From NCBI RefSeq assembly GCF_900167395.1, contig NZ_FUWK01000014.1:1-32000 (forward strand): a stretch of 32,000 bases of DNA, written 5' to 3'. A program made the position numbers and the translations under genes. A model generated the notes under the pieces. That model had not been told where the DNA came from. It did not search any database and worked only from the letters and a program-made list of their open reading frames with translations. This document shows positions 9,569-32,000 of the stretch, in pieces. Position 1 is the stretch's first letter; each line of letters begins with the position of its first letter. The stretch comes from Nitrosomonas europaea. GTDB lineage: Bacteria > Pseudomonadota > Gammaproteobacteria > Burkholderiales > Nitrosomonadaceae.

Positions 9569-9748
9569 TCCTGTCAGTGACCGGCTGTGATGATAGTCAC
9601 TTCCGGATTGTCATAATTGTGTCAAAGTTGGCGATTAACCGGCGTTTGGCTGGTTGCCGGCGGAGCATTATGTTTGTGGAATGCGGATATTGATTTTGCA
9701 AACCCGATCAGGGCATATTCAGGTATTCATCGAGAAAACAATATTGAA

Positions 9749-13922: not shown

Positions 13923-13968
13923 TGCGACAATTTGTCGCATTTTCAGCCGGCCAATTTGTGAAGATAAT
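13923..13968 (+). promoter_or_regulatory. Operator-promoter module, copy 1, upstream of FecI-like sigma gene 1
   Basis: Perfect 8-1-8 palindrome TGCGACAATTTGTCGCA (13923-13939). It is followed by TTTTCA (-35-like, 13940-13945), a 17-nt spacer and GATAAT (13963-13968). The same architecture recurs at 27466 and, on the minus strand, at 31644. Confidence 0.6.
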
Positions 13969-14025
13969 CTGCACATCGCAATGTGTGCTGATTGTTTCAG
14001 ATTCTATTTCTCAAAGGCCATTTCC

Positions 14026-15495: not shown

Positions 15496-15640
15496 GCGAT
15501 TACTCCCCTCTTGGAGGAGCAATTCCTCTTCTAATCTGTCCCCGCCCGGCTGCAGCAGGAAAGCAGTTGTTGCGCGATTACTTCCTCCCGGAGGAGCAAT
15601 TCCTCCTCTAACCCGCCACCCGGTCGGCTGCAGTAAAAGC
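15496..15640. repeat. Two tandem copies (period 78 bp, about 80% identical by eye) of a hairpin-containing element
   Basis: Copy A (15496-15564) is GCGATTACTCCCCTCTTGGAGGAGCAATTCCTCTTCTAA...GGCTGCAGCAGGAAAGC. Copy B (15574-15640) is GCGATTACTTCCTCCCGGAGGAGCAATTCCTCCTCTAA...GGCTGCAGTAAAAGC. Each contains a GAGGAG-CAATTC-CTC(C/T)TC hairpin. Confidence 0.8.
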
Positions 15641-15659: not shown

Positions 15660-15830
15660 GCCAGAGATCGGCTGAAATATAACCTATGTGCCACTTCCTG
15701 CTTTCTGGATCGCCACGTGATTGACAGTGGTGAATTTAAAAATCATGTAATCAGCACTGCCCGGTTTTCCGGCTCGTGTCTCATGGATAACAGAAGCACA
15801 TTTTTTACCGACCAGACACAGGGAGTTTTC

Positions 15831-27377: not shown

Positions 27378-27465
27378 GGAGCCCTGAAAGGGCGAATCGA
27401 TCCGGGCTGCTATTTCCTGCCATGATGAGGTTCCTCAAGCATTTCGTAACCGCCGGACTTCCGGG

Positions 27466-27511
27466 TGCGACAATTTGTCACATTTTTCGGTCCGGAGAAA
27501 GACAGTATGAT
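27466..27511 (+). promoter_or_regulatory. Operator-promoter module, copy 2, upstream of FecI-like sigma gene 2
   Basis: TGCGACAATTTGTCACA (27466-27482, one change from copy 1). It is followed by TTTTTC, a 17-nt spacer and TATGAT (27506-27511), the same offsets as copy 1. Confidence 0.6.
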
Positions 27512-27546
27512 GAGCGCAGTTTTTAGCCAGGTATGCCCTACTGTTC

Positions 27547-28047
27547 ATGACAATTACCTATTCCGGCGATGAACTGTTTCTTCAACTGCGCGGTGATCTG
27601 CTGAATTATCTGTGTCGCAAGCTGAGCAAAGATGAAGCAGCCGATATACTTCAGGAAATCTATCTGCGATGGCGCAGGCAGGATATCTCGAGTATCGAAA
27701 ACCCGCGCGCCTTCCTGTTTACCGTTGCGCTCAATCTGATCCGGGATCAGGCACGCCGGCAGGCGCATGTGCAAACCTACGCCAATACCATGCAACACCT
27801 GTTTCAGGATAAACCTGCGGACTATGATCTGGCACAGCATTGTGACGAACGCAGACAAATAGAATATCTGCAGCAGGCTCTGGATCAGTTGCCGGAAAAT
27901 GTACGCCATGCTTTTCTTCTTTTTCGCCTCGATGGTTTGACATTTGCTGAAATCGCACTGCAGATGGGTATTTCAAGCAAATCCGTGGCACGCTACATTC
28001 AGCACGCCAGCGAGCACTGCCTGACTGCTCTTGCGCAATATCGGTGA
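27547..28047 (+). CDS. fecI: ECF sigma factor, FecI-like (second copy)
   Basis: 166 aa. Region 2 is DEAADILQEIYLRWRR...PRAFLFTVALNLIRDQARR; the region 4 HTH is LTFAEIALQMGISSKSVARYIQHA. Confidence 0.88.
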   Translation: MTITYSGDELFLQLRGDLLNYLCRKLSKDEAADILQEIYLRWRRQDISSIENPRAFLFTVALNLIRDQARRQAHVQTYANTMQHLFQDKPADYDLAQHCDERRQIEYLQQALDQLPENVRHAFLLFRLDGLTFAEIALQMGISSKSVARYIQHASEHCLTALAQYR

Positions 28048-28115
28048 TAATACTCTACTGATCATTTCGATCCTGTGAAGTAATCAGCATTTATCAAAAT
28101 GCTCCGGAGTGCAGT

Positions 28116-29099
28116 ATGCACCTATCAAACAGTCCGAATTCGCATGACCCTGATGCACAGGCACGATTCTGGTTCGCACGGCAGCAGGGTCAGACTTTGT
28201 CGGAAGCGGAACAGCAGCAACTGGCTGAATGGCTGGCTGCCAATCCACTGCATCAGGATGCCTGGCGGCGTGTGGAGGAGGACTGGCTGGCAATCGACCG
28301 TTATCGTCATGCACTGAATGATGAGTTGAAAAAGGCACGCCGTAACCGTCCCGGACAGCATAAAGCGGCCTTTCAACTTAAACGACGGGCGGCAGCTGCA
28401 GCTCTGTTGGTGGCAGTATGCATTCCTGTGCTGTATCAGGGCATGACCGGAACGACAACATACTGGAACACCTTGAAAGGTGAACAGCAGCAGATCACCC
28501 TGGCCGGTGGCTCCACTCTGAATCTGGATACTGCAACGCGTATCACTGTCACGCAGAACTGGTTCACACATCATGTCCAGCTGCATGAAGGTGAAATCTA
28601 TCTGGAGACGGCATCATCCGACTGGCATACTTTGAGAGTGAGTGCGGAGCATTACGAAATTCGTGATATCGGCACACGTTTTTCGGTCAGGTATATCCCT
28701 GATCAGTTCATGGTCGAAGTTGCTGAAGGTACGGTTGAAGTAAAAAAACAGGGACAGCTGGTGTTACTGCAAGCGGGTGAAGTACTTTCCATCATTACCG
28801 GCAGTAATGAATGGAGGCTGGCGGCACTGCCGGCAGGGGATATCGCTCACTGGCGCAAAGGTCTGCTGGTATTCAATGCACACCGGCTGCATGACGTATT
28901 ACACGAAATCGCACGCTATCATACGGTTCAATTCGATCTGGCCGATTCCGCCATTGGCGAGATACAGGTCAGCGGTCGTTTCAAGCTCGATGAGCTCGAT
29001 ACCAATCTGCAAATCATCGCCGATACACTGAAAATCAATATCGAACACCCGGCACCCGGCCGTTACAGGCTGGGTGCCTTGCGGCAATCAACACGCTGA
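28116..29099 (+). CDS. fecR: FecR-like transmembrane anti-sigma factor (second copy, no adjacent receptor)
   Basis: 327 aa. SD GGAG. N-terminal domain ARFWFARQQGQTLSEAEQQQLAEWLAANPLHQDAW, TM helix AAAALLVAVCIPVLY, a FecR domain and a C-terminal domain (LLVFNAHRLHDVLHEIARYH). Confidence 0.88.
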   Translation: MHLSNSPNSHDPDAQARFWFARQQGQTLSEAEQQQLAEWLAANPLHQDAWRRVEEDWLAIDRYRHALNDELKKARRNRPGQHKAAFQLKRRAAAAALLVAVCIPVLYQGMTGTTTYWNTLKGEQQQITLAGGSTLNLDTATRITVTQNWFTHHVQLHEGEIYLETASSDWHTLRVSAEHYEIRDIGTRFSVRYIPDQFMVEVAEGTVEVKKQGQLVLLQAGEVLSIITGSNEWRLAALPAGDIAHWRKGLLVFNAHRLHDVLHEIARYHTVQFDLADSAIGEIQVSGRFKLDELDTNLQIIADTLKINIEHPAPGRYRLGALRQSTR

Positions 29100-29210
29100 G
29101 GGACACACACGCATTCACCGAAGTATCATGCTGTGTGTGCCGTATATCGATCACGAGTCGGAAAGTAGCCGGGATTATTTACTATCAGTTCATCCCGGCC
29201 CTCGTACTTG

Positions 29211-29834
29211 TTATTTGAAATGTCTGATACGGGTATATTCTCCTTCAGTTTTGAGCGTAATCGTCATCGGGGTGGATGTCCGGTTTCGCCAGAACCACCC
29301 ATGATCACCGTCAAAAGCTGCTTCTAAGACGCCTTCCCGCATTTGTCCGGTCCCCTTGCTGTAACTATGGTAGTTGATCTTCAGTTCTTTTGAATCTCCA
29401 TGCTGATCAAAAACAGCTGTTCCACCATTAGTCCGCCAAACGTAGTGAACTTTACTTCCCTTTGTCATCGTCACCTTGATCTCAGTACCTTGATTTGGGG
29501 CAAGCGTTATCTTTTTTTCATGACTCATCTCTGATTTTGGAGCAAGCGGCAGAGATTCTGTTACTGCTGTTACCGCTTCAGATAATTCGATCTGCAGGCT
29601 GGCAGCCGCATTCGCCCGATCTGCAGTTGCTTCTTCTGTCAGAGAAACTTTGATTTCTCCCATTCTTTTCAGACCGGTGATTTCACCGAAACCGGTTGGA
29701 TCGATACCGTATTCCGCAGGCATTACAACAGTGACGAGTAAAAATATCGCAGTCAGTAATGCAATGACGGTAGATCTGATCAATCTGCCGGTTGAGGGTA
29801 TCTCATGAGTTGAAGGTATGTTTGCGTTATACAT
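29211..29834 (-). CDS. Membrane-anchored periplasmic protein of unknown function (beta-rich C-terminal domain)
   Basis: 207 aa. N-terminal anchor LIRSTVIALLTAIFLLVTVVMPAEYGIDPTG. C-terminal domain: KKITLAPNQGTEIKVTMTKGSKVHYVWRTNGG...DGDHGWFWRNRT. SD AGGAAA. It starts 20 nt after the HupE/UreJ stop, so the two genes are co-transcribed. Confidence 0.6.
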   Translation of the reverse strand: MYNANIPSTHEIPSTGRLIRSTVIALLTAIFLLVTVVMPAEYGIDPTGFGEITGLKRMGEIKVSLTEEATADRANAAASLQIELSEAVTAVTESLPLAPKSEMSHEKKITLAPNQGTEIKVTMTKGSKVHYVWRTNGGTAVFDQHGDSKELKINYHSYSKGTGQMREGVLEAAFDGDHGWFWRNRTSTPMTITLKTEGEYTRIRHFK

Positions 29835-29854: not shown

Positions 29855-30538
29855 TCAGATAGTGCTGAATAAAATGAAATGGCCTGTAATCTGGTATCCC
29901 ATCAAGAGGAAGCCGAGCATCATCATGAATGTATTGGTGTTATAGGCGTGGTTCATGAATTTTCCGGATTTCCTCCAATATGCAATTGCGATCAGAATGG
30001 CCGCCAGTGCCAGAATTTGTCCGATCTCGACACCGATATTGAAGAAAATGAGATTTGGCAGGAGTCCATCAGCCGGTAATTCGTACTCCAGGATCTTGGT
30101 GGCAAGGCCAAAACCATGAAACAGTCCGAAGATAAAAGTGGCAATCTTTGTATCAGGCTGAAAACCAAACCAGCGCTGAAAGGCTCCCATATTGTCCAGA
30201 GATTTGTAAACGATGGAAAATCCGATGATTGCATCGATCAGATAAGGGCTGACAGCAACCTCAAACAGAACACCGGATAACAGCGTAATGACATGGCCGG
30301 CAGCGAACAGCGTGACATAAATACAGATGTCCTTCAGTCGATACAAAAAGAAAATCACACCCAGCAGAAAAAGCAGATGATCGTGACCGGTCATCATATG
30401 TTTTGCGCCGAGATAAATAAAAGGTATCGGCAATATGCCGGTACTTTCCAGGATATAGCCCTTGTCACCCTCGGTGACACCATGCGCAGTAACATCAGAA
30501 GTAACTCCAAAAATTACTGCGATAAAAAGAGCCTTCAT
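29855..30538 (-). CDS. HupE/UreJ-family metal (Ni/Co-type) transporter
   Basis: Start at ATG 30538 gives the signal peptide MKALFIAVIFGVTSDVTA, with a His at the predicted mature N-terminus. Signature HMMTGHDHLLFLLGVIFF, plus FGLFHGFGLA. Six TM helices. The track ORF from 30610 adds 24 non-signal residues. Confidence 0.8.
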   Translation of the reverse strand: MKALFIAVIFGVTSDVTAHGVTEGDKGYILESTGILPIPFIYLGAKHMMTGHDHLLFLLGVIFFLYRLKDICIYVTLFAAGHVITLLSGVLFEVAVSPYLIDAIIGFSIVYKSLDNMGAFQRWFGFQPDTKIATFIFGLFHGFGLATKILEYELPADGLLPNLIFFNIGVEIGQILALAAILIAIAYWRKSGKFMNHAYNTNTFMMMLGFLLMGYQITGHFILFSTI

Positions 30539-30573
30539 ACATAAACAAGTCAACACGCCATGCTCCACAGGAG

Positions 30574-30595
30574 ATGACATTTTCATTTCAGTCAT
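30574..30595 (-). promoter_or_regulatory. Dyad ATGAC-N12-GTCAT just upstream of the HupE/UreJ start
   Basis: The plus strand reads ATGAC (30574-30578), attttcatttca, GTCAT (30591-30595). The dyad lies 36-57 nt upstream of ATG 30538. Confidence 0.3.
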
Positions 30596-30821
30596 GCAAA
30601 TTGTCTCCATGAATTACAGTCCGTGGATCCGGAATTTCCGTAAACCGCGGCGATGGAACGGGTGCTGCAACAGTACTGGTTCTGTCAGGAATATAGCCTT
30701 TCCCCTGTCAAGTATCCGAGACAATGATTACCAGATGAAACCGGTAATACTGAGACAGGACATACAACAGACTGAAATCGCACTGGCGCTGACTGAGCCG
30801 TCAGCACACCCGATTGTGAAA

Positions 30822-31235
30822 TTAGTACCTGATTTCTAAAGAAGCGGTATTTCGAGGAGGGCGGAACGGTAAATCAAGAGTTGATTCAGGAATGCCGGCA
30901 GGAAAGAATCCGGGGATATTTTCCTTTCCCGGGAGAGATGGAATAATCGGTAGCAAGATAAAATAGAAAGGCTGAAACTGCCCGGCTGCATGCAGGATTA
31001 AATGATCTGTGAAATCCGGATCGTTATCGAGGGTTTCGTCATGATGCTGATGAAACCCTGTATCTGCTGCGTGATCATGGTACGAATGATGATGATCGAA
31101 TCTATGCGATACATGGAAATGATCAAGCTCATGTTTGAAGATTTCCTGATGGAATGACCAGGCAACTGCATTTGTCAATAAACTGACAAACAGTATCAGA
31201 AGAATAAAATTGTCGGTCATATATCTCTTGCCCAT
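30822..31235 (-). CDS. Small His-rich exported/anchored protein (putative periplasmic metal-binding accessory protein)
   Basis: From ATG 31235: MGKRYMTDNFILLILFVSLLTNAVA (signal/anchor). Then HQEIFKHELDHFHVSHRFDHHHSYHDHAADTGFHQHHDE, with 15 His in 39 residues, and a Pro-rich C-terminus ending PFRPPR. The start is uncertain (31235, 31220, or GTG 31331 in the track). Confidence 0.55.
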   Translation of the reverse strand: MGKRYMTDNFILLILFVSLLTNAVAWSFHQEIFKHELDHFHVSHRFDHHHSYHDHAADTGFHQHHDETLDNDPDFTDHLILHAAGQFQPFYFILLPIIPSLPGKENIPGFFPAGIPESTLDLPFRPPRNTASLEIRY

Positions 31236-31403
31236 GGCAGCAAAACTGTATACACACCCGATCAGATCGTCAACTTTTCTGATCTGATAAAAGGTGGTTT
31301 GATGATTGCACTGATTTTTCCTGAAAATCACACTGAAAACAGCTGACTAAATCCTGACGACAGTGGACGAAAAGTGACATAAAAACAATGGCAGGAGAAG
31401 TAG

Positions 31404-31449
31404 AAAAAAAACGCCTGTCGATTTATAAAAAGACTATAAAAGGACAGGC
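31404..31449 (-). terminator. Intrinsic terminator on the minus strand
   Basis: The minus strand reads GCCTGTC (31449-31443), an inner TTTATA/TATAAA helix, GACAGGC (31419-31413), a G, and then U8 (31411-31404). Confidence 0.7.
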
Positions 31450-31592
31450 AGAAGTAGAGGAGGGAAGCAATTACTTACCGGTGAGCACACTTTCATCCAG
31501 ACAAGATCCGAAAGAAAAACCTGCATTCTTTCTCATGAATCTATATTCATATTGCAGATATGAATCCGGATATCAGAGGTGGTACAGATAAT
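31404..31592 (-). ncRNA. Candidate ~190-nt sRNA, or attenuator leader, bounded by a promoter and a terminator
   Basis: The predicted TSS (~31592) lies 7 nt past CATAAT. There is no SD-preceded ORF; the longest minus-strand ATG ORFs are 21 and 30 codons. Alternative hairpin arms ATGAAT/ATTCATAT/ATATGAAT lie at 31535-31565. A C/U-rich stretch CUUCCCUCCUCUACUUCU (31467-31450) precedes the terminator. Confidence 0.4.
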
Positions 31593-31598
31593 GAGCCA

Positions 31599-31644
31599 AT
31601 TATGTTCTCAAACATCCTGTTTGAGAATGTGACATATTGTCGCA
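31599..31644 (-). promoter_or_regulatory. Operator-promoter module, copy 3 (minus strand)
   Basis: The minus strand reads TGCGACAATATGTCACA (31644-31628), TTCTCA (31627-31622), a 17-nt spacer and CATAAT (31604-31599). This is one mismatch to copy 2, with identical spacing. Confidence 0.55.
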
Positions 31645-31710
31645 TCGCTTATTTGGCGAGGCTTTTGGCTGAAAAGAAGTGCAAAATTCGAGTTGAAATG
31701 TATCGAGATA

Positions 31711-31741
31711 GGAACGGTCAGCTAAGCTGACCGTTCCTTTT
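31711..31741 (+). terminator. Hairpin with a short T-run and no obvious plus-strand gene
   Basis: GGAACGGTCAGC-TAA-GCTGACCGTTCC is a 12-bp perfect stem (31711-31737), followed by TTTT. Confidence 0.45.
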
Positions 31742-32000
31742 CACATCATCCGGCATGCGAGTTCACAATCGCTGCACGGGCGAACGGAGAACATCCTGCT
31801 CGCTTCATGTCCCGGTTTTAAAATGTGCAATGTGGTAAGAAACTGCACCTAAGCAGGTGCCTCATTTCTGTTTGGCCTGTACGATATCTTCTGATATACC
31901 CTGATAACTCTTTGAAAATCATACATATACACATAGAAAAAGCTCAGAGACTTCAGTAACGCTGCTGTATGCAAAGGTGGGCATGATGTAAAGGTGTCCG

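Follow-up and report, generated by a model that had tools for sequence, protein, structure and literature searches.

Near the end of the window, by which we mean the whole stretch of 32,000 nucleotides of Nitrosomonas europaea DNA that was analysed, lies a divergent intergenic region of 757 nt. On one flank, on the plus strand, a gene for a TonB-dependent receptor with an STN domain starts just beyond the window end. On the other flank, on the minus strand, lies an operon composed of NE0545 (a His-rich membrane protein), NE0544 (a HupE_UreJ_2 protein) and NE0543 (207 aa). The surrounding 40 kb contain three FecI-type ECF sigma/FecR pairs, TonB receptors, PepSY_TM proteins and an RND pump. Within the intergenic region the minus strand carries a palindromic operator, a promoter (P1), a body of about 190 nt and an intrinsic terminator. 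The predicted non-coding RNA body extends from 31404 to 31597, which corresponds to complement(588603..588796) in N. europaea ATCC 19718 (AL954747.1), where the coordinate equals the window coordinate plus 557199. The predicted 5' end of the RNA most likely lies near 31592-31597. The elements from which the original prediction had been assembled (palindrome, promoter, dyad, hairpin arms, C/U stretch, terminator and open reading frames) were all found in place.

N. europaea is a model ammonia oxidiser with an unusually high demand for iron and haem. It makes no siderophores and possesses more than 20 FecI/FecR/TonB-receptor systems, the control of which is poorly understood. A small RNA (sRNA) candidate with genome coordinates, together with an operator common to FecI-type sigma genes, would offer two experimental entries into the metal homeostasis of a nitrifier. 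The unit was compared among four N. europaea strains (the window and contigs L083, L089 and L093) and with a sister Nitrosomonas lineage (contigs L086, L087, L088 and L091).

The operator palindrome and promoter P1

P1 is a sigma-70-type promoter on the minus strand (31599-31627), with the -35 hexamer TTCTCA (31627-31622), a 17-nt spacer and the -10 hexamer CATAAT (31604-31599). It was recovered by the promoter scan. A GC-containing 17-bp palindrome of 8-1-8 geometry, TGCGACAATATGTCACA (31627-31643, minus strand), adjoins the -35 hexamer and is centred at about -44. Two other copies are present in the window on the plus strand, at 13923-13939 and 27466-27482, preceding the ECF sigma genes at 13981 and 27547, respectively, and a fourth was found just beyond the window end, ahead of the next ECF sigma gene. 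The consensus of the operator is TGCGACAA-N-TTGTCGCA. Its pattern was found at three sites in the window, where 0.09 would be expected by chance, and none of 100 shuffles reached three. No copy of the palindrome was seen in about 0.8 Mb of unrelated loci. Outside the window, copies were located in L081 (5967-5983), in L091 of the sister lineage (1931-1947 and 9658-9674) and in two contigs carrying distant homologues of the His-rich gene, L082 (303-319 and 2433-2449) and L085 (179-195).

In seven promoters, four of them from N. europaea and three from distant relatives, the palindrome (17 bp), a weak -35 hexamer (6 bp), 17 nt and the -10 hexamer follow each other in exact register. The module stands ahead of FecI-type sigma genes and of distant His-rich genes; it also precedes a PepSY_TM-OEP-MFP-RND operon of the sister lineage. 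It looks like the motif of an undescribed regulon; literature searches with the palindrome and the locus tags gave no informative matches. The sharing of the operator with two iron-starvation sigma genes, a part of the original prediction, was borne out as regards the sharing. The genes are of the FecI-type ECF class, and control of the operator by iron is an assumption. A second short terminated unit was sought after the operator copy at L091 1931, and the candidate was rejected as it folded no better than shuffled sequences.

The idea that the unit follows the Fur logic of RyhB, PrrF and NrrF gained no support, as the operator is unlike a Fur box and the Rfam models of iron-responsive sRNAs found no match. 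The Fur box published for N. europaea resembles that of E. coli, and the Fur protein of N. europaea can complement an E. coli fur mutant (PMC3050691). No canonical Fur box was detected in any promoter of the 41-kb uptake-gene region, the best matches to GATAATGATAATCATTATC being at chance level. In the manner of Fur-family boxes (Fur, Zur, PerR, Mur), the palindrome is an inverted repeat of the 15-19 bp class placed against or over the -35 hexamer of metal-uptake promoters. The geometry of these boxes is 7-1-7 in the model of Baichoo and Helmann, as cited in PMC3050691. The sequence TGCGACAA-N-TTGTCGCA, by contrast, resembles none of those that could be matched. It is a matter of speculation whether the uncharacterised Fur paralogues of N. 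europaea, NE0730 and NE1722 (Zur-like), are candidates for binding it. The control of fecI genes, taken as an analogy, inclines us towards a putative repressor; the position of the operator centre near -44 and the weak -35 hexamers may also be compatible with an activator. Nickel, cobalt or zinc would be as likely a signal as iron, in view of the linked His-rich protein, the HupE_UreJ_2 protein and the czc-like pumps.

The spacer of P1 is itself a perfect dyad, TTCTCAAAC-AGGAT-GTTTGAGAA (31605-31627). Described as a 9-5-9 repeat and scored here as 10-3-10, it belongs to a set of just four perfect inverted repeats in 32 kb whose arms measure 10 nt or more and lie 1-12 nt apart. The suggestion that it forms a second operator is not borne out by its conservation. 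In the sister lineage both hexamers of P1 (6/6 each) and the spacer length are kept, and five of the 17 spacer bases are changed, which breaks the dyad in L086 and L091. The dyad is a feature specific to the N. europaea lineage, and a conserved operator role is improbable.

Two minor observations concern the sigma genes of the region. Those located behind operator promoters (13963-13983 and 27506-27549) have leaders that are very short or devoid of a Shine-Dalgarno (SD) sequence: the ATG at 13981 lies just 12 nt past the -10 hexamer, and two sigma paralogues have in common a conserved 35-nt leader without an SD. In addition, a 37-nt direct repeat, present in two copies (15507-15543 and 15584-15620) which are 81% identical and 77 nt apart, was found between a FecR gene and the TonB receptor gene at 15717. 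A CCTCC..GGAGG dyad forms part of each copy, and the repeats may have arisen by duplication of an ECF-dependent promoter or leader.

Terminator, fold and coding potential of the RNA body

The unit ends on the minus strand with an intrinsic terminator (31404-31449), GCCUGUC..GACAGGC followed by U8, in which a GC stem of 7-8 bp encloses an inner AU helix of 7 bp. The loop limit of the terminator scan (3-8 nt) was the sole reason why the scan missed it. With a free energy of -17.3 kcal/mol, the good terminator expected at this place was confirmed. In the sister lineage the stem is kept, with a compensatory change of a U-A to a C-G pair, a U7 tail and a free energy of -19.3 kcal/mol.

The RNA body folded better than its shuffled versions in both lineages (z-scores of -3.1 for N. 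europaea and -4.5 for the sister lineage). In the RNAalifold consensus a multi-branched 5' domain is followed by an unpaired C/U stretch and by the terminator, and all the differences between the two lineages fit this consensus: among the 58 pairs one shows a compensatory change, five show one-sided compatible changes and none is broken. In a shuffle control for covariation, 248 of 500 alignments reached the observed value, the test having no power with two diverged lineages. Single-sequence folds disagreed in the 5' domain, and the minimum free energy fold of N. europaea lost five of the nine changed pairs when it was threaded on L086. Within the 5' domain, all predictions agreed on a single helix, the 8-bp hairpin AUUCAUAU-cugca-AUAUGAAU (31545-31565, minus strand). 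This hairpin and the terminator are the only robust structures. As for the two mutually exclusive hairpins described previously, the arms ATTCATAT, ATATGAAT and ATTCAT are indeed present, but covariation lent them no support and the 8-bp hairpin alone appeared in all folds.

Directly 5' of the terminator lies a C/U-rich stretch, CUUCCCUCCUCUACUUCU (31467-31450, minus strand), of anti-SD character. About 12 nt of it, CCUCCUCUACUU, showed an unpaired probability of at least 0.9 in both lineages. The stretch is included in a block of 39 nt (31443-31481, minus strand) which is 100% identical between the lineages, and the unpaired anti-SD segment postulated for this RNA is accordingly present and accessible in both. 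Scans for target duplexes, applied to 33 translation-initiation regions and to all 50-nt windows in 41 kb, revealed no outlier. The best initiation region, that of FBPase, reached -26 kcal/mol, which corresponds to the 1% background level and is expected with 33 tests.

Could the unit be a small protein gene instead? The plus-strand reading frame of 67 aa (31388-31591), which the original prediction had mentioned, and minus-strand ATG frames of 5, 21 and 30 codons do exist in N. europaea. None of them is preceded by an SD, and the 67-aa frame gave no match in Pfam. In L086 the ATGs of the 21- and 30-codon frames and an inner ATG are mutated, only the trivial 5-codon frame being retained. Indels of -2, +1 and -1 shift the 67-aa frame by a net -2 in the sister lineage and leave a fragment of 31 aa. 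The reading frames of both strands being broken in this way, the unit has no coding potential, and a small protein encoded by the 67-aa, the 21-codon or the 30-codon frame is very improbable.

Conservation in N. europaea and in the sister lineage

Among the four N. europaea strains, none of the 296 sites between the operator and a point 55 nt past the terminator was variable. In the flanking non-coding DNA 36 of 477 sites (7.5%) varied, a significantly higher proportion (p = 3e-8), and in the neighbouring coding sequence 1.1% did. A further group of N. europaea-like contigs (L094-L104), compared by BLAST only, brought no new difference over the part of the unit that they cover. Many independent Logan contigs in this group (L097 and L099-L104) start at identical bases inside the RNA body (31524-31533), at positions which coincide with SNPs relative to the sister lineage. 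These shared starts most likely result from breakage of the assembly graph in mixed-strain samples and not from biology.

The sister lineage is 88% identical to N. europaea over 575 nt, and its His-rich protein is 85% identical. The operator is conserved at 17 of 17 positions, and the substitutions are distributed as one would expect for a functional sRNA gene. Over the RNA body the divergence between the lineages was 8.7%, compared with 31% and 17% in the non-coding DNA just downstream (Fisher p = 6e-4). The highest value belongs to the 55 nt directly past the terminator, which diverged at about three times the rate of the RNA body. The latter is conserved on a par with the neighbouring coding genes and is under purifying selection. 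The absence of conservation in related genomes would have told against the original prediction; instead the operator, P1, the terminator and the 39-nt block are all kept in the sister lineage.

The conserved block is bounded on its upstream side by a perfect hairpin with 14-bp arms (31710-31738), which precedes the operator by about 65 nt. It is followed by TTTT on the plus strand only, and a compensatory A-U to G-C change distinguishes N. europaea strains at this hairpin. The region homologous to the sister lineage starts within the loop of this hairpin, a position suggestive of either a rearrangement breakpoint or a plus-strand terminator. Since other sequence precedes the block in the sister lineage, it is the operon that the unit accompanies, not the TonB receptor gene. 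In every genome in which it was found, it sits directly upstream of NE0545-HupE on the same strand, and it was never seen apart from this operon.

The distribution of the RNA is narrow. The HupE gene is highly mobile, with 70-80% identity among many phyla, and its 80 best loci in GTDB genomes, including two Nitrosomonas metagenome-assembled genomes, showed no DNA similarity to the unit. An nhmmer profile built on both lineages recovered only orthologues in 0.9 Mb of collected sequence. A metagenome scan with the 20-mer CTTCCCTCCTCTACTTCTGC returned three orthologous contigs and two chance matches in an unannotated, membrane-permease-like reading frame. The RNA body had no significant homology with the leaders of distant His-rich genes (L082, L084 and L085). 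An Rfam cmscan of the whole window at gathering thresholds gave no match, and when 31150-31800 was scanned permissively (E <= 10), the RNA body still had no match. Among the sequences searched, the RNA is confined to N. europaea and the sister Nitrosomonas lineage. We also considered whether an ECF sigma gene had been duplicated and had decayed, the unit being what is left of its 5' end; this was rejected, no similarity being visible beyond the promoter.

This narrow range would suit the view that the unit is a transcriptional insulator or a relic: a terminator gained later would have separated an ancient operator-promoter from its gene, and the RNA would have no function of its own. Homologues of the RNA body could be detected in the two close lineages only, and the sister lineage has a rearranged upstream context. 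Against this stand the conservation of the RNA body, equal to that of its coding neighbours and far above that of the adjacent non-coding DNA, the 39-nt invariant block, which is not expected of a relic, and the maintenance of the promoter hexamers. We hold a functionless RNA to be improbable.

The downstream operon and a model for the unit

The operon has a promoter of its own, P2 (31245-31273, minus strand), TTGACG/A-17-TACAGT, located 9-10 nt before the ATG at 31235. P2 is conserved in four lineages, two of which are devoid of the RNA unit. It lies so close to this ATG that the NE0545 mRNA would be nearly leaderless, with no SD. The annotated start of NE0545 (GTG 31331, 169 aa) is probably wrong and the ATG at 31235 is preferred; other annotations give the protein 132-137 aa. 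The His-rich protein is rarely encountered: a set of 5.8 billion proteins yielded only four clusters of it. Upstream of the distant homologues in L082 and L085, the palindrome-promoter module is found 105-177 nt from the ATG, with no RNA body and no intervening terminator; in L082 it lies upstream of a czcCBA-like operon. The presence of the module ahead of these distant genes makes the link between operator and gene appear ancestral. A paralogue of the His-rich N-terminus (MNRSLTIHSIVSVLFVSLLTNSVVWTFHGDQI), truncated to 31 codons, is also present in L082, at about 30-124 of the minus strand, with its own palindrome-promoter 177 nt upstream.

These relationships lend some support to the alternative mentioned with the original prediction, a leader or attenuator of the His-rich/HupE operon. 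According to this alternative P1 is the metal-regulated promoter of the operon, the terminator halts most transcripts, some factor or condition permits read-through, and the short RNA is a by-product. The unit does occupy the strand and the position of a leader and is always linked to the operon, and the homologues in L082 and L085 have the same module upstream with no terminator between. An attenuator, however, needs a competing structure, and no antiterminator was found. In truncated folds the best rival of the 15-bp terminator (-17 to -19 kcal/mol) was a pairing of 5-6 bp, between the 5' arm of the terminator and (G/A)CAGG. There was no match to a riboswitch or leader family (NiCo, cobalamin, M-box, yybP-ykoY and others), even at E <= 10. 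The candidate leader peptides are lost in the sister lineage, where the start and the internal ATG of the 30-codon frame are mutated. The operon has its conserved, near-leaderless P2, and conservation in the region is lowest over the approximately 130 nt that separate the terminator from P2. Finally, the ATG of NE0545 lacks an SD, which implies poor translation from transcripts with a long leader. A cis-acting attenuator leader is thus unlikely, and if the unit were merely that, it would be an ordinary regulatory feature. The presence of P2, the lack of an antiterminator and of a leader peptide, and the unconstrained DNA between the terminator and P2 together favour a discrete RNA acting in trans.

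We consider it somewhat more probable than its negation that the unit is an independent regulatory sRNA gene of about 190 nt, acting in trans through the C/U-rich anti-SD stretch and probably derived from a regulated 5' leader. It possesses what is generally found in trans-acting sRNA genes: a conserved promoter and terminator of its own, no conserved reading frame, and a conserved and accessible seed. We propose the following model for this sRNA gene. A dimeric regulator, probably a repressor, would bind the 17-bp palindrome adjoining the -35 hexamer of P1, and the same site would serve it ahead of at least three nearby FecI-type ECF sigma genes. The regulator would leave the DNA, presumably under metal limitation, and P1 would fire. 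The transcript, the existence of which we infer from the conserved promoter and terminator, would end at the strong intrinsic terminator. It would be composed of a structured 5' part, an unpaired C/U stretch of about 12-15 nt and the terminator hairpin with its U-tail. The C/U stretch would most likely pair in trans with the SD regions of target mRNAs, possibly with the involvement of Hfq, and lead to their repression. The unit would probably descend from a 5' leader through which NE0545, the His-rich gene, was once regulated, as is suggested by the operator-promoter standing directly upstream of the distant homologues of this gene. The unit may then exemplify a clean and recent birth of an sRNA gene from a 5' leader.

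A broader proposal, of which we are rather doubtful, sees in the RNA the post-transcriptional arm of an undescribed metal-starvation regulon of Nitrosomonas, defined by the non-Fur-box palindrome, to which NE0730 or NE1722 may bind. In it, the palindrome would control, in place of a Fur box, the FecI-type sigma genes, the RND/PepSY operon of the sister lineage and the His-rich/HupE-type genes, and the sRNA would be a recent addition that arose when the His-rich 5' leader gained a terminator.

The unit is a good candidate for a metal-responsive sRNA, as predicted from its sequence. Its anatomy is the one known from metalloregulated sRNAs; the RNA itself has no homologue in Rfam or, beyond the two lineages, in the sequences searched. 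In common with RyhB (RF00057), PrrF (RF00444) and NrrF (RF01416), it has a stand-alone promoter, a palindromic metalloregulator-type operator common to metal-uptake genes, a length in the range of about 100-200 nt, an unpaired pyrimidine-rich region and a Rho-independent terminator with a U-tail. It differs from them by the absence of a covariance-model match, by an operator which is not a Fur box and by a very narrow phylogenetic range. Small RNAs derived from 5'-UTRs or from attenuation are another term of comparison, such as the riboswitch-derived SreA and SreB of Listeria and the premature-termination products detected by Term-seq in E. coli. The candidate resembles these as a short terminated transcript upstream of a co-oriented operon and, apparently, by an ancestral promoter-leader-gene arrangement. 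Unlike them, it shows no detected ligand-sensing aptamer or alternative structure, and the operon downstream has its own conserved promoter.

Fifteen psRNAs were predicted in N. europaea by Gvakharia et al. (2010, FEMS Microbiol Lett 312:46), a study cited in PMC3927594. That prediction was of the same kind as ours and concerned the same organism, and the candidate RNA (588603-588796) may coincide with one of the 15. One member of the set, psRNA11, is reportedly responsive to iron and to Fur.

Some observations were made on the genes next to the unit. In L091 (9590-10430), compared with the window (27443-29225), most of the FecR anti-sigma gene (27998-28981) is deleted. The deletion fuses the ECF sigma gene to the 3' end of FecR, so that in the sister lineage the pair beside the HupE operon is in decay. 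The HupE_UreJ_2 protein NE0544 (29855-30610) is 66-81% identical across the loci L001-L080, which span Cyanobacteria, Planctomycetes, Verrucomicrobia and Alpha-, Gamma- and Deltaproteobacteria. Its relatives are usually paired with a 207-aa protein similar to NE0543, and this distribution indicates that the pair is a highly mobile module. The UniProt name of the HupE_UreJ_2 protein refers to ORF1 of the nickel-resistance plasmid pTOM9.
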